A DNA stretch of 64,000 bases. It comes from a phage. Made by a program: the position numbers and the translations under genes. The first letter of the stretch is position 1. Every line of letters begins with the position of its first letter. Of the stretch, positions 38,005 through 52,234 are shown in pieces. Below the pieces are notes generated by a model, which saw only the letters and a list, made by a program, of their open reading frames with translations, searched no databases and was not told the DNA's origin. The stretch is from sequence record PX915677.1. One strand, given 5' to 3'.

Positions 38005-38661
38005 TTAACTCTCCACAGTTTTCTTCAGAGCTGCCCATGAGATTGGGTAGAGTTTAGCCATCTCTTCATCCAGAGATTTAGCAAACACTCGAACTTCATA
38101 TTGAGCGTGAGATGAGAGTCGCTGACGACACAACTCAAACCAGCCATACAAAGAACCAGTCCACACCCACTCAGTGATCATCCCCTGAGGAAGAACAAAT
38201 CGAGCTTGCTCTGGTGCAATAAATTCAATCAACTTGTCATATGCTGCTAGAGAAGCTTCATATGCATCGTTAATCAGCATTAATGCTTCAGCTCGCTCTC
38301 CGTTGATGAGTTGAATCCCTGAACCTGCATGGAGGTCCGAAGGTCTCGCAAAAATCTCTTTAGGGATGAAGACTTCAACTGCTCCATCTTTATACCGCCG
38401 GGACATTTCGTTCCACGAGAATCCAACCTGATGCTTCTGTAGTTGACGAGCGATTGCAATTGGAGCCTTACAACGAAAGGACACTTGTGGGTGACGGAAC
38501 GGAGTGCAGTGTTTCTCTCTAGCCAAGAAGTTAATCAGCCTAGTATCACGATCATTCAAATCACCCTCTCGTACAACACCAAAAGAAACTCTTGCAGCAT
38601 TAACAACAGTTTTATCACTGCCCATAGCTTCAATCAATGTTGCTTGCAATTGTTCATTCAT
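38005..38661 (-). CDS. thyX: flavin-dependent thymidylate synthase (ThyX-like), variant signature
   Basis: ThyX-like ...KHQVGFSWNEMSRRY tail (canonical RHR appears as KHQ) and overall size. Confidence 0.55.
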   Translation of the reverse strand: MNEQLQATLIEAMGSDKTVVNAARVSFGVVREGDLNDRDTRLINFLAREKHCTPFRHPQVSFRCKAPIAIARQLQKHQVGFSWNEMSRRYKDGAVEVFIPKEIFARPSDLHAGSGIQLINGERAEALMLINDAYEASLAAYDKLIEFIAPEQARFVLPQGMITEWVWTGSLYGWFELCRQRLSSHAQYEVRVFAKSLDEEMAKLYPISWAALKKTVES

Positions 38662-39133
38662 ACTTCAACTTCTCCTTGTTATAAGCAATCTCTGCTTCCT
38701 CTGGAGTATGGAAAGTTCCTAAATGCTTAGTCTTTCCGTTAACTCCGATTATAGCTCTGAATTTTGTACCACTAGCCGTCTCTCTGATGTAAACACCCAT
38801 TGGAAGTTTTCCAGCTTTTCCGGCTCTATTGTATTGTTTTCTGTTATGACAGTTTGTAGATGGGTCAACATCTCTTAGGTTTTTAAGAGAGTCATCCAGT
38901 TTAATCTGGTTGATGTGATCAATCTCAAACTCAGGCATCTTTCCATAAGAGAAAAACCAAGCTAATCGACATGCTCTGTAAGATTTCCCTTCATAATAGA
39001 TGTACCTGTAACCTAATGTTGAGACACACCCAGCAATGTTCCCTGATACTCTCCTACCTTTGGTATTCTTCCACCTAAAGATTCCAGTATCAGGGTCATA
39101 TGCTAAGTCTTCTTTTATCTTATCAGTTAACAC
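38654..39133 (-). CDS. HNH homing endonuclease with AP2-type DNA-binding domain
   Basis: YRACRLAWFFSYGKMPEFEIDHINQIKLDDSLKNLR plus AP2-like GVYIRETASGTKFRAIIGVNGKTKHLGTFHTPEEAEIAY. Confidence 0.7.
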   Translation of the reverse strand: MLTDKIKEDLAYDPDTGIFRWKNTKGRRVSGNIAGCVSTLGYRYIYYEGKSYRACRLAWFFSYGKMPEFEIDHINQIKLDDSLKNLRDVDPSTNCHNRKQYNRAGKAGKLPMGVYIRETASGTKFRAIIGVNGKTKHLGTFHTPEEAEIAYNKEKLKYE

Positions 39134-40210: not shown

Positions 40211-40532
40211 TTGGGTTTTCTCCATCAAGTTCAACTGAGTTAGCAACATTACGTGCAATATTATCCATTACCTGCTGGGTAATTACGATGCAGTTCTGTG
40301 GGTCTACTGACTTAGAACGCCCCATTTCAGGGTCATACACCTTAACTCGCTTAGCAGTTGAACCTGTGACCTGAAGAACCTTCAACAGATATCCCTGATT
40401 ACCAATAGACCAAGCAACAACATCACGATTCTTGATAAAGCGACCAAGCATATCACGATGATAAAACTGTTGCATCACCTTGGATTTTGTAATCTCTTCA
40501 GTGGGCGGGGCCACTTTACTCAAATCTAACAT
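40203..40532 (-). CDS. hypothetical protein
   Basis: 109-aa ORF. Confidence 0.4.
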   Translation of the reverse strand: MLDLSKVAPPTEEITKSKVMQQFYHRDMLGRFIKNRDVVAWSIGNQGYLLKVLQVTGSTAKRVKVYDPEMGRSKSVDPQNCIVITQQVMDNIARNVANSVELDGENPNA

Positions 40533-40604
40533 AACTCTCTCCTGTAAAATACAAATTCTTATTGTACTCTATATACATTTGAGAGTTATCATATCTACTA
40601 CCAA

Positions 40605-40814
40605 TCAGTAGTAAATTACTTTAGACATAAAAGAACCAGTGTTAGGGTCTTCATACCAGCGATGTATGTCAGCGCTTTTTACTATTGTGCCCAGAGTCTT
40701 CAACTGTTTCTTAGCAATACGAGCCTCTTTGCGAGTGTCAAACAATTTGATGTTATCTTTTCTCATGTGTTGCTCAAGATTCCAAACAACATGAATAGCC
40801 CACATCTTTTTCAT
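40605..40814 (-). CDS. small protein, tandem triplet family member 1
   Basis: 69 aa ending ...VIYY; family shares W...R.EAR..KKQ...YY. Confidence 0.4.
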   Translation of the reverse strand: MKKMWAIHVVWNLEQHMRKDNIKLFDTRKEARIAKKQLKTLGTIVKSADIHRWYEDPNTGSFMSKVIYY

Positions 40815-41023
40815 TAGTAATGTACCTTTCCGCTAATATAAACACGACCAGAGGAATACTCTCTGGCCTTATGAATACTGATGCTCTTGATCATATCCAT
40901 ATTAAACATAGATTTTTTAAAATCTCGAGCTTGTTGGCGAGTGGGTAGTGCAGTCATAGTCATGCCACCTGATGCCCACTTAATCTTTGCTAACCAAAAT
41001 TGTCTCATGGTGATTGGTCTCAT
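40814..41023 (-). CDS. small protein, tandem triplet family member 2
   Basis: 69 aa ending ...KVHY. Confidence 0.4.
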   Translation of the reverse strand: MRPITMRQFWLAKIKWASGGMTMTALPTRQQARDFKKSMFNMDMIKSISIHKAREYSSGRVYISGKVHY

Positions 41024-41220
41024 TAATAATAAACCTTACTGTTAACACAAAAAGCACCTTCACTATTCACGATAGCTTTTCCTAGTGTAACCTTATTAAG
41101 TCTAAAAGTAGATTTGTATTGATTTTTGACCCTACGTGCGTGCTCTCGAGTCTTAACAAAATCTACAGCTACTAACTCTCCAGTCGTGTTGTCATGTACA
41201 CGAACAATCCACTTTTTCAT
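41023..41220 (-). CDS. small protein, tandem triplet family member 3
   Basis: 65 aa ending ...KVYY. Confidence 0.4.
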   Translation of the reverse strand: MKKWIVRVHDNTTGELVAVDFVKTREHARRVKNQYKSTFRLNKVTLGKAIVNSEGAFCVNSKVYY

Positions 41221-41754
41221 TTACACACCTTTAGATGCAACCACACCTTCAGAGTTATTATAACGACCCTTCACTGCGTAGGAATGTTCCCCTGCATGAG
41301 AGTGCTCAAACATAACCATTTGACCAACACGCATACCAGCACGAACTCGTAAGCTGTGGTGCTTGGTTACGTTATGGAATTCAAATGTCAGCTTACTGCT
41401 ATTAAATCCTGCATCTGCCCAACCGGCGTGAAGGTGGTTCAAACCACAACGAGCCATAGACGAACGCAAAACAAACAGGCTTGAGATGTTATCTGGAAGG
41501 TTAAACTCCTCCATAGAGTGAGCCAAGAAGAACTGACCCGGAGTGATAACCAAACCCTCTTCAGGAATCTTTACTTCCTTCCACTGAAGATTCTCTTTCG
41601 CATCAATATCAACGATGCCATCAGCCTGTTCTTCAACAAGGATAGTATCACCAATACGGATATCCACACTAGCAGCGTTAACATATTTATGCTCCGCATC
41701 CAGATAACCATTGTCAATTACATCGTGCAGTTCAATACTTCCTAGTAAACCCAT
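41221..41754 (-). CDS. dCTP deaminase (dUTPase-fold)
   Basis: LHAGWADAGFNSSKLTFEFHN...RVGQMVMFE pattern of the Dcd/dUTPase family. Confidence 0.55.
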   Translation of the reverse strand: MGLLGSIELHDVIDNGYLDAEHKYVNAASVDIRIGDTILVEEQADGIVDIDAKENLQWKEVKIPEEGLVITPGQFFLAHSMEEFNLPDNISSLFVLRSSMARCGLNHLHAGWADAGFNSSKLTFEFHNVTKHHSLRVRAGMRVGQMVMFEHSHAGEHSYAVKGRYNNSEGVVASKGV

Positions 41755-41763
41755 TCTTATTCC

Positions 41764-43077
41764 TTAGTTATTTTCGTCTATTTCAAAAGAGATTCCACGA
41801 CCCGCTTCATCGGCAAACCGAACTGTACGGGTTTGAGGCTGCAACACTTCAGGGTTGTTGGCAACAAATTGATCAGCGAGACTATCTCCCAAATCCTGTT
41901 CCATATCTTCATCAGTCCACACAGCCCTAACAGGTGCGTTGATATCACCAACAGCGAAACCCTGACCAGAGAACTGACGTGCGCTAACAGTTAAGCCGTT
42001 TGGTCGACCACGAGAGGGTCTAGCCATCCATCGCTCCATAGAATCACTTGTAATACCAAGAGCTTCTTCAAAAGATGTTCTACGAGTAGGGCTTTCTCTT
42101 CGTGACTCTTGTGCTCGACGCATTGCAGGGGCTACAAACACCCCTTCAATTGCATTGTGTCGGTTAGGTTCCTCTTCTCGACCAAGCAGATCACCACCCG
42201 TGTTAGTCGTTAAATTTGTCAACCCCTCAGACCAATACGCATGAATCTGACCAGAACCGTGAAGACTAGACATAATCTGAATCTCTTCATAAGGGATTCC
42301 AAAGAATCGACTCATGTCTCGGTTAACACAATATAGAGCACTTGTTGTATCTTCAATAAGAGAAACCTGACCTAATCCATTGACTAGATGACTAACTGGC
42401 TGAGGTGTGGGAAGATATCGAGTTTGGGCCATGTATTGATGCGCAACTGCTGGAGAGGAAAATCTCAACACTTGTGAGTTAGGCCACTTCTTGTGAACAT
42501 ACCTGATTTCACGACTAGAAACAACCACTGGACAAGGGGAAGTCATAGCCAAATATCCGTGAGAAGTCATGAATAAGTTGTCAAGAGTCATCGCACCACG
42601 GCACATCATAGGAAAATTATCCAATACCTCTTCAATAGAAGTAGGATAATTAAACATGAATTGGATACGAACCCCATTCCACTGAAACTCAATAATATCA
42701 GTGAATGTTAATTGAGAACCCCCAGCATAGGATTCGTTTGTAGCTTCAGCAAGAAGTGATGCATATTCAATATCTTGTGACTCTAGCCATTCCTTCACAT
42801 TACTTTCAATCTCCCGTCCAAGCTCTTGCCAACGATCAGTTGGGATGAAAGTGTTTTGAGTTCTTGGTGTTTGTCCTCTGACAATAAAGATATCAATGTC
42901 ATGTGGAGCTATGTTATTAAGGACAGCATCACGAACAGCCCCACCAGTAATGATGGGACAGATACCATCTGGAATCAAGTTGTTGTTAATCAACTGTTCA
43001 ATGAAGTGACGACCAACAGTGATATCAGGTTGTTGAGCAACCTTATCTTCAATTTGGTTAATCGGGATAACAATCAT
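41764..43077 (-). CDS. nucleotidyltransferase with CCA-adding/poly(A) polymerase-type head domain
   Basis: PIITGGAVRDAVLNNIAPHDIDIFIV closely matches the GGxVRD...DxD class-II tRNA nucleotidyltransferase motif; start at MIVIPINQ one nt after the exonuclease stop. Confidence 0.55.
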   Translation of the reverse strand: MIVIPINQIEDKVAQQPDITVGRHFIEQLINNNLIPDGICPIITGGAVRDAVLNNIAPHDIDIFIVRGQTPRTQNTFIPTDRWQELGREIESNVKEWLESQDIEYASLLAEATNESYAGGSQLTFTDIIEFQWNGVRIQFMFNYPTSIEEVLDNFPMMCRGAMTLDNLFMTSHGYLAMTSPCPVVVSSREIRYVHKKWPNSQVLRFSSPAVAHQYMAQTRYLPTPQPVSHLVNGLGQVSLIEDTTSALYCVNRDMSRFFGIPYEEIQIMSSLHGSGQIHAYWSEGLTNLTTNTGGDLLGREEEPNRHNAIEGVFVAPAMRRAQESRRESPTRRTSFEEALGITSDSMERWMARPSRGRPNGLTVSARQFSGQGFAVGDINAPVRAVWTDEDMEQDLGDSLADQFVANNPEVLQPQTRTVRFADEAGRGISFEIDENN

Positions 43078-43078
43078 T

Positions 43079-43636
43079 TTACATTTTCCAATATAATGAA
43101 GGTGGGTCGTAAGGGTCAAATCCCGTGAGTTCACACAAGAAAAGATAAACCTTAACAGTCAAGTTAACGTCCTGTTCACAATAAGTAAACATATCTTCAG
43201 TGAAAGCATCCCATGCTTCCTCTTGCTCACCGTAGTCACCTTTAAGTTCCTCTAAGAACTCACCCCATTGCTTCAAGCCGTGACCTCTTGGGCCACGTCT
43301 AGGGTCGCCTTTCGGATACTCAGGACTGTCGCCAATACGGTCAGGTTTAAGATATCGACTAAGACATAAAGTGTCAAAGACGTTAAAATTATATTTAATC
43401 AAAGAGGGATACATCTTCTTCAGAGCAGGTAAGTCGAAGTCAATAATATTATGACCCACTAGTACATCTGCTTCTGTCAGTTTACGAATCCCGTCTTCAA
43501 TTTGGTGAGGCCGATAGCCCCACCTTTCACCAGTTTCAACATCGAAGATATAAATACACCATACTTTAGTTATGTCATCGTACAGTGCATTACTCTCGAT
43601 ATCGAATGCAAACACTTTCTTCTTTTTCTTTACCAC
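43079..43636 (-). CDS. DnaQ-like 3'-5' exonuclease (stand-alone proofreading domain)
   Basis: Exo I FAFDIES, Exo [13 protein letters not shown], Exo III YCEQDV. Confidence 0.7.
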
Positions 43637-45420
43637 GGTGAAGCTCCATCTGCTTGGTTGACGAGAGAAGCTGCATCCTCTCCGTTAGTTAAAACGAATG
43701 GATTATCTTCATCAACTTCAAAGTCTTCCCTTTCTACAAGTCTACCGGTTTCGCTGATATACTTAGTATAACAGACACCTGTCTGACCGTAGTTACGTTC
43801 TTTCAGTAATCGAATGACTGAGAGGTTCTTAGCTAAGCCGTCAGCTTGCTTATCACGCTCAAAGCCAATGATACACTGACACCAACGCATAAGAGAACGA
43901 GAGCCAGTGAACTGTACTTCACGTACCTGTCCACCTTCTTCATGAGGAGCACCACCTGCCGGAGCATTAAGGTGAGATAACACGAAAGCGGTAAAGTCTA
44001 ATTCTTTACACATACCAGCAAGCTCGGAAGCAATCTTACTGATTTCAGTGTTAATCTCTGAAGGTGTTAAATGAGATACCAGAGCGGTAATGTTATCAAG
44101 GATGATGAACTTACACTGGTTTTCAACTACCCAGAAACGGATACACTGTTTAATGTCTTCCCATTCATTCTGTCCGAAGTTGTCATACAAGAAGAATTTG
44201 TCTGCATAACGAAGTGCTTCATTACGCAAATCTTCCTCGTCATATTCAACATCAGGTCGGTGGAAAGGAATTGATGCTGACTTACCAGCAATGTTCTTAA
44301 CAGACATGCCTACCTTCTCTTCCAAGAAGAAGCCACCTCCATTAAAACCATGCTCTAAGCACAGATGAGCAACCAGCTCGTGAGCAATGAGTGTTTTACC
44401 ACTCCCTACTCCACCACCAATTGCTACCACCTCTCCCCATCGAATACCGAAGGTCATCTCATTCAGAGTCTTCCACGGATACGGGATACCCCACTCCGCT
44501 TTCTTCAGAGCATCATCAAGACAATCAAAGATTGTTACAGCACCAGCAGGAGATTCCCGCTTTGCTGAATACTTGAGAATGTTGAATAACTCTTGACCAC
44601 GACCAGACAGAAGCATGTCATTCGCATCCTTAATCTCTTTCTCCACACCGTTGTATGGGAAGGTTCCTTTAGGAATACGAGCAAACTTGACATGAGGGAA
44701 TAAAGAACGACCTTTTGTTAAAGCTATCTCACCTGCATCATCGTTGTCCATGCAGAGCACAACCTCCTCAAAACCATTTACGAAGTCTCGGTTACGAGAC
44801 AACACAGAAGAGATTGAACCTGCACCGAACGGTAAAGAAACACATGCTGGTTTAATGTTTGTTGCATTTGTAAAAGCTGTAAGGACATGGAAACCTGACA
44901 TACAGGATAGCGGGTCTTCAAAAATGAAGAGCTTCTTGTTGTACACATCTCCACGTTGAGCTTGTGCCATACCAAACAAATCTGCTTCTTTCACACTGCC
45001 GACGTAATAGAACTTCTTACTATCTAGCAGCTTAACCTCGTACCCGACAATGTTTCCATCACGTTCACGAGGAAAGAAGTAACTGTCTGGTGTCTGACCA
45101 TCAGTTTGACTCAGACCAATGCGACACTCAAACCGCTCTGATACAGCTTTAGGGATTAAACGGCGAGTGAGTTCACCCTGAGGAAGCTCTAAGCAATCAT
45201 CTAAGACTTCTCTCAACTCTTCAGGGGATAACTCTTTCTTCTCGTTTGGAGTAGGTGTAGTGCCCTTTTCGAACACTTCGTAATTCCCACAACGGTTACA
45301 ACTTCCCCACTCCTCACCAGTCTCTTCGTTACGGAAGAGAATCATGTGGTTGTGGGTTTTATCACGACCATGAGAGATACATTCCTTACAACCTGTGTCT
45401 CCCAAAATGATCTTTGACAT
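43630..45420 (-). CDS. DNA primase/helicase (T7 gp4-like)
   Basis: N-terminal Cys4 zinc-binding domain, TOPRIM (LCMDNDDAG), DnaB-type Walker [10 protein letters not shown] and Walker B FIILDN. Confidence 0.85.
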
Positions 45421-45446
45421 GCTCTTCCTCCTTGGAATCCTTGAGC

Positions 45447-45650
45447 TTAGTAGAACGAACGAATTTCATCCCACACTTGTTCCTGTTCTTTCCTATAAAA
45501 AGAAAGTTGGGTCTTGAACATCTCCACTGATGATTCAAAGTTTTTGGTTTGTGCAGCTTCAACGAAACGTTCATGTCGGTTGATTTTGCACCGTAGCATT
45601 AAATACTTGGCTTCAAGTCTCCGAAGAGCCTGCCTTTTCTCAAGATTCAC
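45447..45650 (-). CDS. hypothetical protein
   Basis: 67-aa ORF. Confidence 0.35.
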   Translation of the reverse strand: MNLEKRQALRRLEAKYLMLRCKINRHERFVEAAQTKNFESSVEMFKTQLSFYRKEQEQVWDEIRSFY

Positions 45651-46059
45651 TTTTCAGATACTCTGACCAGTCGCCAGATTCAACCAGAACATCTTGTTCT
45701 TCGTCGATGTGATAAATCCAAGCGATAACAGTTTCACCTGAGTCCATCTTAACAGCAATCTGAGTACGCTGATAGAAGCTGTCTTCAGGGCTACGTTTGT
45801 TGTAACCTTCCAGACGGTCATACGGACCTTCCAGACCTGCTTTGTCAGTAGCAAACACTTCTACACGAACAGGCTTATTGTTATTGCTGTGTGCGAGAGA
45901 GATGCTCGGGAAGTAGGAACCACCATAACGGAACAGATCAAAGTTGTCTTCAGTCCAACCTTCACCAATCGACTTAGCACCAGCTCGGTCATTAACTAAA
46001 TAGTTAGCTTGACCACGACGAAGAGAACCATAAGTTGCTACGTAAATTACTTCTGACAT
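45640..46059 (-). CDS. gamma-glutamyl cyclotransferase-like (AIG2/GGCT fold) protein
   Basis: N-terminal YVATYGSLRRG motif. Confidence 0.5.
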   Translation of the reverse strand: MSEVIYVATYGSLRRGQANYLVNDRAGAKSIGEGWTEDNFDLFRYGGSYFPSISLAHSNNNKPVRVEVFATDKAGLEGPYDRLEGYNKRSPEDSFYQRTQIAVKMDSGETVIAWIYHIDEEQDVLVESGDWSEYLKSES

Positions 46060-46060
46060 T

Positions 46061-46270
46061 TTAAATACCTTTCCAGTCTTTCATGATGTTTTCAATGTAA
46101 GCACACTGCTGATCAGTGGCTCCTGTTACAAACACTTCTAACCCCAACTGCTCACAGAAGGGATTAAGAATCAATATTCTGGTTTGCCCATACGAGTGAT
46201 GCTCTCGGTAGATAACACACCCAGCATCCCATACAGAATCAATGGCTTTACTCAATCTTTCATGTTTCAT
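46061..46270 (-). CDS. hypothetical protein
   Basis: 69-aa ORF in ligase operon. Confidence 0.35.
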   Translation of the reverse strand: MKHERLSKAIDSVWDAGCVIYREHHSYGQTRILILNPFCEQLGLEVFVTGATDQQCAYIENIMKDWKGI

Positions 46271-46323
46271 AAAACCTCCAGCTTATCCGAACTAGCCTCC
46301 TCTTTCGAAGAGGCTAAAGCAGA

Positions 46324-46509
46324 TTACTCTGTAATAAAGATTTTGATTACACCACAGATTGCTGCACTCTCAAATACTGCAACAGCTTCACTCCCCTGAA
46401 AGAAGGCCACTTTGCCGTCAGAGAAGTTAAACATGTCAGCATCTAGGTCCATAGCTCGCATATCACCAGCGTCGTTAGTATCTTTAAACAGAACTTTATA
46501 CTTATTCAC
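46324..46509 (-). CDS. hypothetical protein
   Basis: 61-aa ORF in ligase operon. Confidence 0.3.
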   Translation of the reverse strand: MNKYKVLFKDTNDAGDMRAMDLDADMFNFSDGKVAFFQGSEAVAVFESAAICGVIKIFITE

Positions 46510-46754
46510 AGATAGGTCACTCCTTTGTCTTGTTGTGCTTCAGAGATGATACGTTCTACACATTCCATAGAATACTTATCACCACGTTTCAGGAAAGTTA
46601 CAATTGCAGAGAATTGATTACCAATCATTCGCTGATTAGTAATACCCCACTCCTCACACAACTTACGCAACTCTTTACGAGAGCCTACAATCAGAGGCTC
46701 TTTTTGTTCCATCATTCCATTTTGTACTAGATCTTCCAATGAAAACATATCCAT
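46506..46754 (-). CDS. hypothetical protein
   Basis: 82-aa ORF in ligase operon. Confidence 0.35.
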   Translation of the reverse strand: MDMFSLEDLVQNGMMEQKEPLIVGSRKELRKLCEEWGITNQRMIGNQFSAIVTFLKRGDKYSMECVERIISEAQQDKGVTYL

Positions 46755-46760
46755 ATATCC

Positions 46761-47963
46761 TTAGTAGTTTACAACAGTGCCATCGTTCAGGGTAAGGCTA
46801 TTAATCTGCAACACACGACCAAGCTGACGATCACTAATTGGTGCGTTCCATCCAGAGCGGTAGAAGTTACGACCACAGAAGAACAAGATCACATTACTTG
46901 CTACAGTCGAACCGTTTTCAGGATGCTTGATGTTAGCGATATAATAACCACGACGCAGATTACGACGGGTTACTGGGTTGATCTCTAACCCTTGCTCTTC
47001 AACTTGCATTGTTTCAGGAACAGGTTCCGAAGATTCTTCAGCAACTGGCTCGGAGCTTTCCCCTGATAGTGCGTAATCCTCATCACCTGCTGGTGAAAAT
47101 GTTTCTTCTACTTCTTCCACAGGAAGTTCGTATGCAACACGATAGTCAGGCTCAACACCAGAGAAGCTCTTAACAAACTCAACGATGTTGTGAGTGTAAG
47201 TTTCCAGAGTTGTTCCAGTCAGTCCCGGAGCTGTGTTAACTTCCAGAACCCAAGCGTTAGTATTTTTACTAATCAGGTCAACAGCACCAAAGTTCAAACC
47301 CAGAGCAGATACAGCTTTGTGAGCTTGAATCAGAACTTGATCAGGAGGCGCGTCAGTGAAGGCGTTAGAATAAACCCAACCAGTATGATGGTTACGAATA
47401 TCTTCACGATAGGTTGACAGATCGCGGTAACCGTTACGACGAATCTTCTTCTGAACGTAAGTGATAACACCTTCGAACACATGAACACGCCATTCACGAC
47501 GTGGGCCTTGGATGCCTTTGGTGTACAGAGGAGCATCCGCAACACCTTCTCGCGCAAGACGAACAGTAATACCTTCTCCAGAGTGACCAGTTAAGGTTCC
47601 ACGTTCATAAACAATTTCATTCCGGTTCCAGTTCTGAGCTACTTCACGATCGACGGTGTATTCAACAGTTTTGACTTCAGCTAAACGCAGTGCGTTAAAT
47701 GCTGCAACTTTGTTAGCCGCTCGGTTCAAGGCAACCACAGAGTTCAACACAGTTGCGCCACCGAAGAAAGCATCATTGTATCGACGGTTTCCGTAGTTGA
47801 CAACAATATCACCAACACGAGAACGGTAACGAGAACCCTCTGATACCAGAGACATTACGTTAGCATTTAAGCGAAGTTCCTGAATCTTAGTGTTAATTGC
47901 AGAAGTAAGTTCACGAACTGAATCAGAAGGGCCATAAGGAAGAACACGGATACGAGTAGTCAT
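46761..47963 (-). CDS. ATP-grasp family ligase
   Basis: C-terminal AVDLISKNTNAWVLEVNTAPGL typical of ATP-grasp (RimK-like) enzymes; acidic Glu/Ser-rich C-terminal tail. Confidence 0.6.
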   Translation of the reverse strand: MTTRIRVLPYGPSDSVRELTSAINTKIQELRLNANVMSLVSEGSRYRSRVGDIVVNYGNRRYNDAFFGGATVLNSVVALNRAANKVAAFNALRLAEVKTVEYTVDREVAQNWNRNEIVYERGTLTGHSGEGITVRLAREGVADAPLYTKGIQGPRREWRVHVFEGVITYVQKKIRRNGYRDLSTYREDIRNHHTGWVYSNAFTDAPPDQVLIQAHKAVSALGLNFGAVDLISKNTNAWVLEVNTAPGLTGTTLETYTHNIVEFVKSFSGVEPDYRVAYELPVEEVEETFSPAGDEDYALSGESSEPVAEESSEPVPETMQVEEQGLEINPVTRRNLRRGYYIANIKHPENGSTVASNVILFFCGRNFYRSGWNAPISDRQLGRVLQINSLTLNDGTVVNY

Positions 47964-47965
47964 TG

Positions 47966-48190
47966 TTAGATACCTTTAAGTTTAAGAATTTCGTTACGAG
48001 TTTTTTGAATCTGAGCTTCAATTTCGAAGTAGTCATTGAACGCATCGTTCTCTACTTCATCGGATGGTGCATCAATCAGACCGAAAGCGAACGGATACAG
48101 CTTTCGCTGCTCCGTTACTAATTCGATATGAACTCCTATGTAATACTGTAGGAGAGTAATCTTCGGTTTCTTAGGAACCAGATTTGACAT
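47966..48190 (-). CDS. hypothetical protein
   Basis: 74-aa ORF. Confidence 0.3.
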   Translation of the reverse strand: MSNLVPKKPKITLLQYYIGVHIELVTEQRKLYPFAFGLIDAPSDEVENDAFNDYFEIEAQIQKTRNEILKLKGI

Positions 48191-48404
48191 GAGGTTCTAC
48201 CTTAATGCCTTTGATTTTTACATAATCAGCAAGCACGTTGTTGATCACTGTTGGGAAAGGAACCTCAACCTGTGTTTCAAGTACTTGACCAATACCAGCT
48301 TGCATCCACTTTTGGATTGCACGAAGGTTATCACATCCTGTGCTCGTCATCGGGATACGTCGAGTAGTTACAACGTTATCCAGCATCATCTTACGAATTT
48401 CCAT
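48171..48404 (-). CDS. hypothetical protein
   Basis: 77-aa ORF. Confidence 0.3.
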   Translation of the reverse strand: MEIRKMMLDNVVTTRRIPMTSTGCDNLRAIQKWMQAGIGQVLETQVEVPFPTVINNVLADYVKIKGIKVEPHVKSGS

Positions 48405-48406
48405 AC

Positions 48407-50437
48407 TTAACCTCTATTCAATGAACATTTAGGAGAATTACAATAAACTTGATTCATAGAACCAAGCGTACAACTTTCAGCATCGCGCCACGGAATCTGC
48501 TTAAAACACTCTGAGCAGTATCCGAGGGTTGACCACATGGCTTTGGTGAAGTCAGTGCTTCGGTTTCCGTCGAAGCTGACAACAGTTTTTCGGAGAGCTG
48601 TTCGTGATTCAGGAAACACACCTGCTTTCTCAGCAGGTTCCTCCTTTTTTGGCTTAGTTGAGATTGCAAAAATACTGTTGCTACGTTTCTCAACATAAGC
48701 ATCAACAACATCCTCCAGAGTGATGCCTGTCTGTTTCGCTGATGAAGGTAATATAGTCATACGACCAATCATTTCTTCAGTTACACGTAAAGCAAACTCG
48801 GGACGACGGGCGTTTGTTGTATCTGTTGCTTTAATCCATACATAACCATCTTTGATCGTAGCATTAGATACTTTCTTCTTTACTTCTACAGCGCAGACTT
48901 TACAGATATCTTCACCACGAAGACGACTAAGTTCATCATCGAACTCATTCTCTGTTTTAACTTCACCACAGATTTCACAAACACCAATAGGAGTTTCCTC
49001 CTCTTCTTCCTCTTTAGGTTTAGTCAAACCTTCCAGACATTCAGGATGCCAATAGCACTGATATGCGAAGACTGCTTTAGGTGCATCCTTCCAATCAATG
49101 TGTTTGTCACAACCACCACAATCACCATGAGAGTGTGCTTCCCAGAATTTACGAGTGATAGTAACGCCGTTCTTGTTGACGAAACTATCATTCATATCAA
49201 AAGGGATATCATCATCGAAGTCAGCAGTAGTTGACTCAGGCTCCTTTTTCTCCAGAGATGGGTCAACAAAACGACCTGCTGTGATCACTAAGCGAACCAT
49301 AGCATTAACTTCGGAGATGCAGGATACTGTCCCACGGTAAACAATTTTAGGGTCTTTCAGGGCATCCTGATAAGCCTTAATGTCTACGTTATGAACATCA
49401 CCTTCGATGTACTCTTGAGACTTCTCATCGTAGATATAACCAATCATCTTACCACGAGAAGGAACAGCACCAGCAGTTGCATAAGGAACAAACTCATGTG
49501 GTGTGATTTCCACAGTCATATCGCGGCGAATATCAATGTTTCGATCGCTTGCGATTTTGTTTTGACTTACCACTGCGTTTCTTCGACGAACGTCTGCCGC
49601 TGTCACTCCTGGCTTCGTGTCGTAAGGATTGCTTGTACTGCTTTTTGAGGAACTTTGATAGTTGCTTTGGCTGTAGTTGTTCGAGTAGTAACTGGCCCAA
49701 CGATTGACTACCGTAAAAACCGGAAGCTCGTGGGCGACCTCTTCAACCAGAGTCATACTGTTGTTTGACATATCAAAGATATATTCTGTACCAACTTTAC
49801 ATTCAAAATGCTCGTCAATACGATTCTTATGAGACTTAGAACGCTTCAGAATCCACATCAACATATCTTCTTCAGAAGCACCAAACCAATCTCTGTTACA
49901 ACGTGCGAGGTGGAATGGACGCTCTTCGTTACGGATGATATGAAGACGGTTATCAGAAGCATCATGCCAGATTAAAGTGAAAGCACCATCCAGCTTTTGA
50001 ATAGTCTCTGCTGCACCAATAGTGTTAATAGAGTGGCAGATGTTCTCACTGTCTACCTCGAAGTTTTTGCTGTCAGGTAACAGATCTTGGTCCATCAAGG
50101 TTCCGTTATGAACCAGAGTGATGTTACCATGTTGGAAAGGATGGGCGTTCTTGGCGTTAACTGCACCTTTCGTTGCATGACGGCTGTGACCAACAATCCA
50201 TGAAGGTGCTACAGTGTAAGCTGTTTCACCAGTGGTGTGCTTCTTGTACTCATCTTGTAGGATGAATGCGAAAGAAGGAAGAGCTTCTTTATAAGTGAAG
50301 ACTTCCTTAGTGCTTTTACGCTGACCAAAGATACCGGAGGAATGTTGTCCTCGGAATACTCCAGCATAAAAGAGTTGGTTAAATACGTCTAAATCAGTGC
50401 TTGACAGATTACCGCCAGCTAATACGATGCCACAAAT
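48407..50437 (-). CDS. class-II (Ntn) glutamine amidotransferase domain protein with Cys-rich C-terminal region; apparent ATT start
   Basis: Frame open from stop 50441-43; N-terminus ?CGIVLAGG, HSRHATKG and LVHNGTL motifs; no ATG/GTG/TTG before codon 114; SD aggtgg 8 nt upstream of ATT-TGT; multiple CxxC pairs C-terminally. Confidence 0.6.
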   Translation of the reverse strand: MCGIVLAGGNLSSTDLDVFNQLFYAGVFRGQHSSGIFGQRKSTKEVFTYKEALPSFAFILQDEYKKHTTGETAYTVAPSWIVGHSRHATKGAVNAKNAHPFQHGNITLVHNGTLMDQDLLPDSKNFEVDSENICHSINTIGAAETIQKLDGAFTLIWHDASDNRLHIIRNEERPFHLARCNRDWFGASEEDMLMWILKRSKSHKNRIDEHFECKVGTEYIFDMSNNSMTLVEEVAHELPVFTVVNRWASYYSNNYSQSNYQSSSKSSTSNPYDTKPGVTAADVRRRNAVVSQNKIASDRNIDIRRDMTVEITPHEFVPYATAGAVPSRGKMIGYIYDEKSQEYIEGDVHNVDIKAYQDALKDPKIVYRGTVSCISEVNAMVRLVITAGRFVDPSLEKKEPESTTADFDDDIPFDMNDSFVNKNGVTITRKFWEAHSHGDCGGCDKHIDWKDAPKAVFAYQCYWHPECLEGLTKPKEEEEEETPIGVCEICGEVKTENEFDDELSRLRGEDICKVCAVEVKKKVSNATIKDGYVWIKATDTTNARRPEFALRVTEEMIGRMTILPSSAKQTGITLEDVVDAYVEKRSNSIFAISTKPKKEEPAEKAGVFPESRTALRKTVVSFDGNRSTDFTKAMWSTLGYCSECFKQIPWRDAESCTLGSMNQVYCNSPKCSLNRG

Positions 50438-50516
50438 TTTCTAATCCACCTGAAGGGTAAACCCTTTCATCTAATTAACCTTTAAATTGTGCCCCTTTAT
50501 CAGAGGCACCCATTGA

Positions 50517-51620
50517 TTACAGCGCTTGCTCTAACTGATTTTCCAGATGGTCTGGAATGTACCCTGTGATATTGCTATCACTGTGACCTGACTCACGTAG
50601 TAAGTCAAAAATAGCACGGATACGCTGTTCTGGAGCGTGTCTTACTTGAGATAGGTCTGCTGTACGAAGCATAACCAGAATCTCTTGGTACAAATTGTTA
50701 GCGTTCCCTCGGACATATCCAAGGAATCCGTAGAAGTCTGACATATGACGTAAGTCAACAAGAACATCTCCGTTGGAGTTAGTTCTACGTAAACGAATAC
50801 GACCAGACTGTTCTACTTCATGAGAACGGCAATACAAAACATCACGGGCCATACAATACCCTGAATGCAAATCAGATTCATCCAGATTGTAATCCAGAGG
50901 AAGATAAGGAAGCATTGGGGCGAATCGTACAGTATTTAAATGCTCAACAAACTGATCGTTGCTCATATCTGCGTTATCTAAAGCCAGCTTCTTCAACATC
51001 AAGAAGCGGTTAACCAGATTGAGAAGTTGACCACGTTTCCACTTAGGCTCGCTGATACGGAACTCAATCGAACCGTATTGGGCAAGTGGCAGAAGGTTCA
51101 GGGATGTATACTTATCCCATGAACGAACCAGACGGTTGAAGAACTCTTCACCATCGTAGTTAAATGCGTCAGAGGCATTCATTACCTGTGCTTGTACCAC
51201 TGCAAACGCAGGGCAGAAATTGCTACGGTAACGATGGTAGCCTGAGCACTTGAACAACATCTTTTCGTAGAAGGTCCAAGCGAGAATGGTTTTCTTGAGG
51301 ATATTACTATCAGCATCCCTCATATCCATATGAACGTGAGTAGAGCAACGCCAAGTCCCCTCGGCGTGCGATTCAGCTACTGCTTCACTCAGGTTGTTGA
51401 TAGCGTCTAACAACTCCTGTCCGTTGTAAGGTCGTGAACATACCATTTCACAACCGTTACGCAGGGAACCATCCTCTGTACAATCCCACATATCTGCTTC
51501 GATATGATCGGAACCTTCGAGTTCAAGTTCAATACCGACACCGCACTGAAGTGCAATTGAACTATGCGCCTCAGTTAAACGACCTTCTCGATATCCAAAA
51601 GTTTGCGCTACAGTTGTCAT
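50517..51620 (-). CDS. glutamine-synthetase-like amidoligase (carboxylate-amine ligase)
   Basis: GIELELEG, GSLRNG and GSIEFR motifs. Confidence 0.5.
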   Translation of the reverse strand: MTTVAQTFGYREGRLTEAHSSIALQCGVGIELELEGSDHIEADMWDCTEDGSLRNGCEMVCSRPYNGQELLDAINNLSEAVAESHAEGTWRCSTHVHMDMRDADSNILKKTILAWTFYEKMLFKCSGYHRYRSNFCPAFAVVQAQVMNASDAFNYDGEEFFNRLVRSWDKYTSLNLLPLAQYGSIEFRISEPKWKRGQLLNLVNRFLMLKKLALDNADMSNDQFVEHLNTVRFAPMLPYLPLDYNLDESDLHSGYCMARDVLYCRSHEVEQSGRIRLRRTNSNGDVLVDLRHMSDFYGFLGYVRGNANNLYQEILVMLRTADLSQVRHAPEQRIRAIFDLLRESGHSDSNITGYIPDHLENQLEQAL

Positions 51621-52234
51621 AACGAATCCACCAACGTAATATTATAATTGCTAAGGTTTTCAGAGATGTGATGAAAATGCTCCAGAAGTCGCATCGGTTG
51701 TTGACCGTAAGAGTCACGAGGTGCTTCCAGATCTACTTGTCCCACCAGTGCACCTTTATAATGCACTTTACCATCTGTAGGATTGATGTAAATATAACGA
51801 GTAACCAATCCATCAAATTCAGGATTGAACAGACTGTAAACCATTTCACCAGAGATCGAACGACCAATTCCCGGAGCGTTTCGAATCTTGTTACCCATCA
51901 AACCCTTCGCTCTCTGACGAACAGGGTTGATATGAGTCCAGCTTACAGTGTTACCGTTATGGAACAGATAACCAACATCAGGTGATTCGAGAATCAAGGT
52001 TGGGTCGAACACTGGAATATTCATCGTAGTGTTTCGGAGATTCCCATGCTCGTTCTTGTACCACTGCTCTACAACAAAATACAGAGCCTGTTCTGCTTCA
52101 TGCGAGAAGTCATCGCTGCGGAAGTTACCGCTCTGCTCAACACCAATCACAAAACACGGAAGGTTGATATTGCCTGCTCGTTTAGCAATCCATGTACCAT
52201 TATAGTAATGAGAAAAATCAGCTACTAAGCTCAC
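51617..52234 (-). CDS. hypothetical protein (ligase operon)
   Basis: 205-aa ORF coupled to flanking genes. Confidence 0.4.
   Translation of the reverse strand: MSLVADFSHYYNGTWIAKRAGNINLPCFVIGVEQSGNFRSDDFSHEAEQALYFVVEQWYKNEHGNLRNTTMNIPVFDPTLILESPDVGYLFHNGNTVSWTHINPVRQRAKGLMGNKIRNAPGIGRSISGEMVYSLFNPEFDGLVTRYIYINPTDGKVHYKGALVGQVDLEAPRDSYGQQPMRLLEHFHHISENLSNYNITLVDSL

Follow-up and report, generated by a model that had tools for sequence, protein, structure and literature searches.

The stretch of DNA analysed here (the window) comprises the 64,000 nucleotides of sequence record PX915677.1, from a phiEco32-like coliphage (Kuravirus, Gordonclarkvirinae). An open reading frame (ORF) on its minus strand at 41764..43077 (437 codons plus a stop; phrog_12715, E=1.7e-245) encodes a nucleotidyltransferase (NTase), which the initial annotation had taken for a CCA-adding-type enzyme. 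Our analysis suggests, with a probability of roughly 0.45, that the NTase is a counter-defence enzyme resembling the anti-Gabija protein Gad2 and would weaken a host nuclease system by nucleotidylylating a target. The gene, its NTase annotation and the flag placed on it by the BASEL paper were already known (PMC11990801). What is new is the absence of class II hallmarks other than motif A and the head fold, the rarity of the family, an old cassette-like polymorphism, the accessory status of the gene, and an apparent remote, collinear kinship with Gad2 and with the short NTases of podoviruses.

The genes and gene segments of the window that are given with coordinates below all lie on the minus strand. 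Motif A (aa 42-66, IITGGAVRDAVLNNIAPHDIDIFIV; 42880..42954) contains the helix-turn expected to bind nucleoside triphosphate (NTP) and metal, together with the DxD carboxylates D60 and D62; GGxxRD and DxDxF were found in 36/36 family members. A β-hairpin at aa 125-143 (FTDIIEFQWNGVRIQFMFN; 42649..42705), for which AlphaFold2 (AF2) predicted strands at 125-133 and 136-143, carries in the family alignment an acidic residue at position 127 (D or E in the members inspected) and the invariant Q139. At the position of class II motif B (aa 147-163, SIEEVLDNFPMMCRGAM; 42589..42639), 'FP' with the invariant P156 stands in place of 'RRDFT'. The strand and first 'neck' helix (aa 182-199, CPVVVSSREIRYVHKKWP; 42481..42534) occupy the position of motif D without its ED..R and bear the invariant Y193 and K197. 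Residues G45, G46, R49, D50, D60, D62, F64, Y117, I128, Q139, P156, Y193 and K197 were invariant in the 27-sequence alignment A2, and Y117 remained at least 90% conserved in the 36-sequence alignment A3. This pattern is that of a working enzyme. The NTP- and metal-binding centre (the GGxxRD helix, D60/D62, acidic 127, Q139, Y193 and K197) is retained, and the gene product is an active-looking nucleotide-transferring enzyme of the Pol-beta fold with predicted catalytic competence.

Beyond this core, a helical family-specific subdomain (aa 200-290; 42208..42480) was predicted with an AF2 predicted local distance difference test (pLDDT) score of about 85-96. It is conserved within the Kuravirus allele class, with a ratio of non-synonymous to synonymous substitution rates (dN/dS) of 0.18, and gave no sequence-profile alignment to class II enzymes or to Gad2. 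The predicted fold stops at about residue 290, pLDDT being low at residues 290-300. The tail (aa 291-437; 41767..42207), delimited by composition and conservation, is R/E/S/G/P-rich and indel-rich, closes with the conserved end ...NPEVLQPQTRTVRFADEAGRGISFEIDENN, and is probably disordered.

Class II enzymes are reportedly defined, in Li et al. 2002 and later work, by five motifs and by tRNA-binding domains. Catalysis is centred on motif A, recognition of the ribose 2'-OH falls to motif B (RRD), and motif D (EDxxR) provides the amino-acid template by which CTP and ATP are selected; the tRNA is bound by helical domains termed neck, body and tail. The class II head-domain motif noted at the N-terminus in the initial annotation was confirmed, as residues 41-66 (PIITGGAVRDAVLNNIAPHDIDIFIV) matched the Pfam PolyA_pol head with E=0.002. 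The PF01743 score was 18.8 bits, under the 23-bit gathering threshold, with profile positions 3-82 of 126 covered, and homologues scored 17.8-21.5 bits. When the family profile was compared with all PDB sequences, only CCA-adding enzymes were returned (best E=0.0016), the informative part of the match being about 21 residues long (IaGGAVRD...PhDiDI). CCA-, CC- and A-adding enzymes also headed the structural neighbours at TM-scores of only 0.3-0.4, and the class II head-domain fold was present in the predicted model.

The agreement with class II did not extend further. The reference alignment comprised five sequences, namely E. coli Cca and PcnB (MG1655) and fragments from Bst, Aquifex and Planococcus. 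The profile-profile comparison of head, neck and body domains, which had been proposed as a check of the CCA assignment, recovered motif A only and no body or tail: hhalign aligned 25 columns for the broad family alignment A3, containing motif A alone, and 70 columns for the Kuravirus-only alignment A1, stopping at residue 111. Motif A is the sole segment that aligned with confidence, and forced alignments carried no confidence and contradicted each other. Motif B ([RK]RD[FLY]T) was found in 0/36 family members, the equivalent stretch reading DNFPMMC with the invariant Pro156. Motif D ([DE]D[PA]xR) was likewise found in 0/36, the equivalent helix starting CPVVVSSR. No tRNA-binding helical body/tail region was present in the window protein, whose fold ends before it, and short family members have fewer than 300 residues. 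The protein therefore differs from class II enzymes and poly(A) polymerase I (PF01743; PDB 1miv, 3aql, 4wby, 1ou5) in motif B, motif D and the body/tail, and on sequence grounds it departs from class II in everything compared except motif A and the head fold. Its core may descend from a class II (CCA-adding/poly(A) polymerase) head domain whose ribose and base-template motifs were lost.

In Bacillus phage SPbetaL7, Gad2 (ORF159) has 400 aa, and the phage becomes Gabija-sensitive when it is deleted; a homologue from a Brevibacillus laterosporus prophage cancels Gabija on its own (10.1101/2023.05.01.538930). The same study reported an AlphaFold-predicted nucleotidyltransferase domain, toxicity of the SPbetaL7 protein on expression, and a locus at which different anti-Gabija genes replace each other (10.1101/2023.05.01.538930). 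A precomputed PF26128 (Gad2) match was available for 29/44 close homologues and was graded 'weak' for P0002. Our own Pfam scans reported no PF26128; the Pfam set used had no Gad2 model, and genuine Gad2 proteins were also unmatched. The nine homologues of Supplementary Table 10 (10.1101/2023.05.01.538930), which include those of coliphage 4MG and Klebsiella phage KpS8 and forms of 214-278 aa, served as the reference set. Against it, the family aligned by hhalign with a probability of 89% and E=2e-6 over 92 columns (query 42-167), spanning motif A, the invariant-Gln strand of the hairpin (IQxM vs IQ(L/M)I) and the motif-B position (FPxxCxGA vs FDFTVCMGA). The Kuravirus allele class alone gave 125 columns (41-200; E=2e-4, probability 48%), which added the neck helix (CPVVVSSREIRYVHKKWP vs YPVVSALRVQKYEDKGY) with R189 opposite R152 and Y193 opposite Y156. 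Y193, R152 and Y156 are invariant in their own families, and R189 is mostly conserved (R/T/K).

Core motifs collinear with those of Gad2 were thus found throughout residues 41-200 (GG; DxDxF; Q-strand; F-x-x-x-x-C-x-GA; P-x-V...R-x-x-x-Y-x-x-K). Both are phage proteins of about 400 aa with an N-terminal, apparently class II-derived NTase core, share (A/T)GG..., NDxDxxF, an (I/L)Q(x)(M/I) strand, F(D/P)xxxCxGA and PxVxxxRxxxYxxK, lack RRD and EDxxR, match phrog_1614, and are encoded at loci where alternative genes or alleles are exchanged. Gad2 itself aligned with class II over 173 columns, placing FDFTVCMGA opposite RRDFTINAL and YPxxSxLRVxKY opposite EDPLRxLRAxRF; Gad2 is therefore a class II derivative without RRD and EDxxR that bridges the two families. 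The nine-sequence Gad2 hidden Markov model (HMM) picked up, at E<0.005, 22 members of the family with a top score of 22.6 bits, above the class II enzymes, which reached 10.6 bits at most. The two proteins differ in the helix, which is mostly 'GGxITS' in Gad2 and class II-like 'GGAVRD' in the window protein, in a long helix insertion of the latter at aa 80-100, and in the C-terminal part, a folded domain in Gad2 and a helical subdomain with a putative disordered tail here. The window gene, in addition, lies within the replication operon of a virulent podovirus. Homology to an NTase not concerned with tRNA was better only in that the Gad2 alignment is the longer one; it is remote, and the HMM-sequence scores for Gad2 and class II are comparable. 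From these alignments we place the NTase tentatively as a sister or variant of Gad2 in a phage-specific clade of class II-derived NTases, rather than as an established member of the Gad2 family.

A third group joins these two. The window protein matched phrog_1614 with E=1.6e-7 and distant members did so with 1e-6 to 1e-10 (aa ~30-140). Each of the nine Gad2 proteins also hit phrog_1614, like the members of the phage family that were scanned. ORF16 of Pseudomonas phage LKD16 (phrog_1614, E=1e-39) is encoded between the helicase and ligase/polymerase genes; its hhalign match to our family covered 40 columns only. Structural matches in BFVD point to the same population, podovirus proteins of 167-220 aa. 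The phrog_1614 NTases are phage-only, consist of the head domain alone and are located in replication modules beside helicase/polymerase genes, but they are half the size (about 170-270 aa), with neither the tail nor the 200-290 subdomain. Proteins described as 'tRNA nucleotidyltransferases' in Pectobacterium Autographiviridae (PMC7693777), whose distribution is patchy and host-linked, probably belong with them. The window family, the short podovirus NTases of phrog_1614 and Gad2 (PF26128) may form one phage-specific assemblage. MenT/AbiEii, the MNT of MNT-HEPN and CD-NTases share the Pol-beta fold and offer precedent for the nucleotidylylation of tRNA ends or proteins, or the making of nucleotide signals, in phage-host conflict; none of them gave a sequence-model or close structural match for the window protein.

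The family is small. A word-indexed search retrieved close relatives only (at least 74% identity), and an exhaustive HMMER profile search of 1.84 billion representative proteins found 31 clusters at E<=1e-3, recovering none of the abundant genuine enzymes of the CCA-adding or poly(A) polymerase (PAP) type in that set. The NTase region is 99.5% identical in phages KM01 and ev_rybdy3 and is held at >=80% nucleotide identity in about 70 phage records. Equivalents of the gene are phiEco32 gp73 (an equivalence taken from the NJ01 annotation note), SU10 CDS74 and Bas90_0070 (of phage SkaterBoy, 97% amino acid identity), which form a family of their own, PHROG 12715. Members range from 274 to 482 aa and have only the first ~215 residues in common; the C-termini of distant members are S/T/N/R-rich and unrelated in length or sequence. 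Eight short members (P0047, P0048, P0054, P0056, P0058, P0061, P0063 and P0064) carry an aromatic residue either right at the C-terminus or beside it (...EYDF, ...SEW, ...EVW, ...WQW, ...GWTF, ...TWDW, ...RFNF and ...PEDY), which recalls the C-terminal tails by which replisome proteins, for instance SSB and T7 gp2.5/gp4, dock. The C-terminus of the window protein is not of this type.

Comparison of related loci showed that the NTase is a set of old, discrete alleles swapped as a cassette within an otherwise highly conserved operon. Relative to the window, IMG/VR locus L007 has a primase at 95%, a dCTP deaminase (DCD) at 95%, ThyX at 94% and an exonuclease at 86% identity, against 36% for the NTase (43% in its core); in locus L008 the corresponding values are 94, 95, 78, 79 and 32%. 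DCD thus keeps 94-95% amino acid identity in loci whose NTases are 32-36% identical, and in more distant loci neighbours at 77-78/75-80% flank NTases at 29-33%. The alleles of cultured E. coli phages fall at >=79% (Kuravirus), about 40% (KBNP1711/Bas89) and about 33% (SU7/ECBP2/Bas87), with no intermediates. In 150-nt sliding windows, identity was about 0.83-0.90 in the primase, 0.35-0.61 exactly from the NTase start and 0.84-0.93 exactly from the DCD start. Within the Kuravirus class (10 loci), dN/dS was 0.02 for the primase/helicase, 0.09 for the exonuclease and 0.056 for DCD, and 0.20 for the NTase overall (0.10 in the core, aa 1-215; 0.18 in aa 216-300; 0.45 in the tail), and the NTase is therefore under purifying selection and a real functional coding gene. 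Its dS of 0.41-0.50, against 0.14 in the primase, shows that the alleles are older than their flanks, which implies allele exchange or maintenance.

The gene is also accessory. In Aeromonas phage 4_4572, whose primase is 58% identical, DCD is kept and the NTase is absent; the slot between exonuclease and DCD (L021:2442-2813) holds an unrelated 123-aa ORF with weak PHROG matches only, an arrangement suggestive of a general slot for accessory or anti-defence genes. Pseudomonas phage FJK, which is LUZ24-like, retains its amidoligase, GATase, GGACT, primase/helicase and exonuclease genes and lacks both NTase and DCD. Judging from these genomes, the NTase stands outside the core replisome and is dispensable for this replisome type in related phages.

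The mechanism we propose is as follows. The enzyme would use an NTP during DNA replication, when phage DNA ends and replication intermediates appear, to nucleotidylylate a target, and this modification would blunt a nuclease-type immunity (Gabija-like, possibly also restriction). Candidate targets are a DNA or RNA 3'-OH (for example at phage DNA ends that lie exposed), an immunity protein of the host, or a nucleotide that would then be inhibitory. Specificity for the target or partner may come from the variable subdomain at aa 200-290 together with the tail, which would explain the diversification of the alleles. An NTase at 33% identity between neighbours at 95% argues for a variable host factor and against CCA-adding and biosynthetic DNA-modification roles, as enzymes on invariant substrates (tRNA ends, nucleotides) do not normally diverge so. 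A conflict with host defence had been put forward in the initial annotation; that general idea fits the evidence, and the route by tRNA 3'-end maturation or repair is not supported.

Several points weigh against this proposal. The Gad2 HMM gave only 2.7 bits on the window protein, and the hhalign probability for its own allele class is only the 48% given above. The family HMM scored the Planococcus CCA enzyme (21.8 bits, via GGAVRD...PHDVD) above the best Gad2 (16.9 bits). D107 of Gad2 (FDFT), invariant in the nine sequences, lies opposite the family-invariant Pro156. No alignment was obtained past Gad2 residue ~164, and the Gad2 C-terminal domain, which in the long forms comprises about aa 215-400, is not shared; some author-listed Gad2 homologues are likewise short, at 214-278 aa. 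The link between Kuraviruses and Gabija is one of remote sequence likeness, and 'works like Gad2' fixes no chemistry, the mechanism of Gad2 being listed as still unknown in a 2026 review (PMC12904381). Hypervariability could also mark a non-essential and weakly constrained gene, against which the dN/dS of 0.10 in the core speaks, and the position in a replication operon, as for the phrog_1614 protein of LKD16, could indicate a role in DNA metabolism.

Among the other explanations, a phage CCA-adding or CCA-repair enzyme, which would mature the phage tRNA-Arg or mend tRNA 3' ends hit by host nucleases, appears highly improbable. Its motif A is near-identical to that of CCA-adding enzymes, these enzymes are the top structural neighbours, and the phage does carry one tRNA gene, as had been noted. 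This gene, tRNA-Arg(UCU), nevertheless encodes its own 3' CCA (...GCGCACCAcatt), the host possesses its own Cca, and the degenerate tRNA-like fragment described alongside it was not recovered, no second tRNA or tRNA-like element being detected in the window. RNA-repair NTases are expected to have RNA ligase, RtcB or kinase partners in the Burroughs/Aravind framework (PMC7824862), and neither an RNA ligase nor RtcB nor a polynucleotide kinase is encoded by this phage. RRD and EDxxR are missing from all 36 members, only 25-70 columns align with class II, the Pfam score is sub-threshold, there is no body or tail, the longer match is to Gad2, and the family profile never recovered a genuine CCA-adding enzyme or PAP among the 1.84 billion proteins. 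The gene is hypervariable and cassette-like, which sets it apart from housekeeping tRNA enzymes and would not be expected if its substrate were the invariant ends of tRNA. The variability argument applies equally to a poly(A)-polymerase-like or other RNA 3'-tailing enzyme, which would mark host (or phage) RNAs for decay and thereby feed ribonucleotides to phage DNA synthesis or shut off the host; such a role is very unlikely, as the class II motifs and the RNA-binding C-terminal region are again missing and RNA binding is without positive support.

The authors of the BASEL paper singled out the NTase-DCD pair as a possible covalent DNA-modification pathway that would make Gordonclarkvirinae DNA refractory to restriction, in view of a strong resistance to restriction-modification (RM) without known modification or inhibitor (PMC11990801). 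The window keeps 34 EcoRV, 12 EcoRI and 8 EcoKI sites, so that avoidance of those sites is not the explanation, and the adjacency of NTase and DCD is kept down to about 25-30% NTase identity. Class II-type Pol-beta NTases are not known from any characterised pathway of phage DNA hypermodification. DCD, ThyX and thioredoxin are enough for an ordinary dTTP supply, ThyX argues against dU-containing DNA, and the divergence of the NTase (33%) beside its proposed partner DCD (95%) is unexpected for a biosynthetic enzyme on invariant nucleotides. With Aeromonas phage 4_4572 carrying DCD without the NTase, we consider this pathway quite unlikely. A replisome accessory factor, for example a terminal transferase on the ends of the linear genome or on replication intermediates that serves the phage's own replication, would agree with the coupling to the exonuclease subunit, the tight operon and the similar position of the LKD16 gene. 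In replisomes, a disordered tail with a conserved end commonly serves as a tether, and the putative disordered tail of the NTase has such an end. Relatives with the same primase/exonuclease/Pol A module nonetheless lack the NTase or carry an unrelated ORF in its slot, and core replisome proteins are 94-100% conserved in these phages, which the NTase is not; this role therefore has little likelihood.

The proposal of a Gad2-like counter-defence enzyme agrees with the observation that Gordonclarkvirinae resist restriction without known modification or inhibitor, for which the BASEL authors pointed to the NTase gene without a mechanism (PMC11990801), and with the EcoRV, EcoRI and EcoKI sites counted in the window. 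A bolder form of it, which we regard as unlikely, is that the broad resistance shown by Gordonclarkvirinae to RM and Gabija-type immunity is determined in part or mainly by the NTase cassette, through an undescribed nucleotidylylation chemistry. If true, the acceptor would be phage DNA ends, replication intermediates or the host nuclease as such, the three allele classes would differ in specificity, the many head-only NTases in T7-like and phiKMV-like replication modules would follow the same principle, and the mechanism of Gad2 would be revealed too.

The counter-defence hypothesis is specific and cheap to test in the K-12-infecting BASEL Kuraviruses, and a Gad2 relative in these genetically tractable E. 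coli phages would provide a second entry point to the Gad2 mechanism. The short head-only podovirus NTases annotated as 'tRNA nucleotidyltransferase' probably cannot make CCA; if they are counter-defence enzymes, their annotations mislead and a widespread anti-defence class has been overlooked. Kuraviruses are frequent in phage therapy, and a swappable anti-defence cassette would be a practical determinant of host range. Should the NTase be an ordinary RNA- or DNA-end transferase instead, the outcome would be a corrected annotation.

Restriction sites were also counted in the window (1-64000). CCWGG (Dcm/EcoRII) is strongly avoided (1 observed vs ~87 expected) and GATC stands at half its expectation (135 vs 257). 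Twelve 6-bp palindromes are wholly absent, for example CTGCAG (0 vs 17), GAGCTC (0 vs 17), TGGCCA (0 vs 12) and GGATCC (0 vs 10), and EcoRV sites occur at twice their expectation (34 vs 16). Site avoidance is thus selective and does not cover the enzymes found ineffective in the BASEL study. Within Gordonclarkvirinae, Kuravirus alone is sensitive to the Fun/Z abortive-infection system (PMC11990801). This genus boundary coincides with the >=79% NTase allele class, a correlation only, as many other genes differ between the genera.

The genomic setting of the NTase was as the initial annotation had described, in that the gene adjoins replication genes. Directly upstream, in the same tight string, lies the stand-alone 3'-5' exonuclease subunit of a split DNA polymerase (43079..43636; PF01612, E=2e-8), preceded by a T7 gp4-like primase/helicase (43630..45420; DnaB_C and Toprim matches) at the head of the tightly packed genes. 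A single base separates the exonuclease TAA from the NTase ATG (43077) at the junction TGGAAAATGTAAaATG, also shown as TGGAAAATGTAAaATGATTGTT, and this 1-nt spacing recurs in distant loci. A longer GTG start for the NTase ORF (to 43134) was rejected, as it falls within the exonuclease gene. Downstream, the gene of the DCD family (41221..41754; PF22769, E=4e-34; TIGR02274, E=6e-31) begins with an ATG 9 nt past the NTase stop, and the gap contains an AAGGA Shine-Dalgarno sequence. No promoter-like or terminator-like signal above chance was found in 40500-46500. The 1-nt and 9-nt junctions together with this absence therefore make the NTase part of a tight leftward gene string (gamma-glutamyl cyclotransferase, primase/helicase, exonuclease, NTase, DCD, small ORFs, a Dps/ferritin-like protein, thioredoxin and ThyX); it is co-transcribed with the replication genes and probably translationally coupled to them. 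The order primase/helicase-exonuclease-NTase-DCD is kept in every NTase-bearing locus, down to about 25-30% NTase identity. In SU10 proteomics the NTase was listed among 'early gene products', with one peptide in the polyethylene glycol (PEG) preparation.

Several further features of this region were observed. DNA polymerase I is split into the 185-aa exonuclease gene beside the primase/helicase and a 613-aa polymerase gene (Bas90_0046) about 8 kb downstream, an arrangement shared by Aeromonas phage 4_4572 and Pseudomonas phage FJK. A second DCD allele (184 aa; 58% identity in L006) is found in L006, L018 and L024 between flanks that are 97-99% identical; an HNH_3 endonuclease gene follows it in L024, and one record labels the allele 'dUMP-forming'. 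Directly downstream of DCD (40605-41220), three tandem paralogous small ORFs of 65-69 aa all end in ...V(H/Y)Y. Their copy number varies, with four in SU10 and one in Bas92, and the stretch is a second divergence hotspot in sliding identity. Between the thioredoxin and ThyX genes, a 159-aa ORF (38654-39133) is absent from the otherwise 95-100% identical Bas90 locus and resembles, by eye only, an HNH/AP2-type homing endonuclease.

Relatives of Bas90 encode nucleotide- or NAD-centred 'conflict' domains (L019:32086-32526, L019:31030-31422, L001:4570-4893 and L001:3457-4194), and the same genes are expected in the window. Some of their labels are misleading: a Macro domain is called 'phosphatase', a 107-aa stand-alone NAD+-binding Nlig-Ia domain 'DNA ligase', and a SLOG-family YspA-like protein 'GTP-binding domain'; PhoH is also encoded. 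Upstream of the primase, at ~45640-52000, a cluster of amidoligase, class II glutamine amidotransferase, ATP-grasp, COOH-NH2 ligase and gamma-glutamyl cyclotransferase genes is conserved as far as LUZ24-like Pseudomonas phages (L022, FJK), and is another candidate source of defence resistance.

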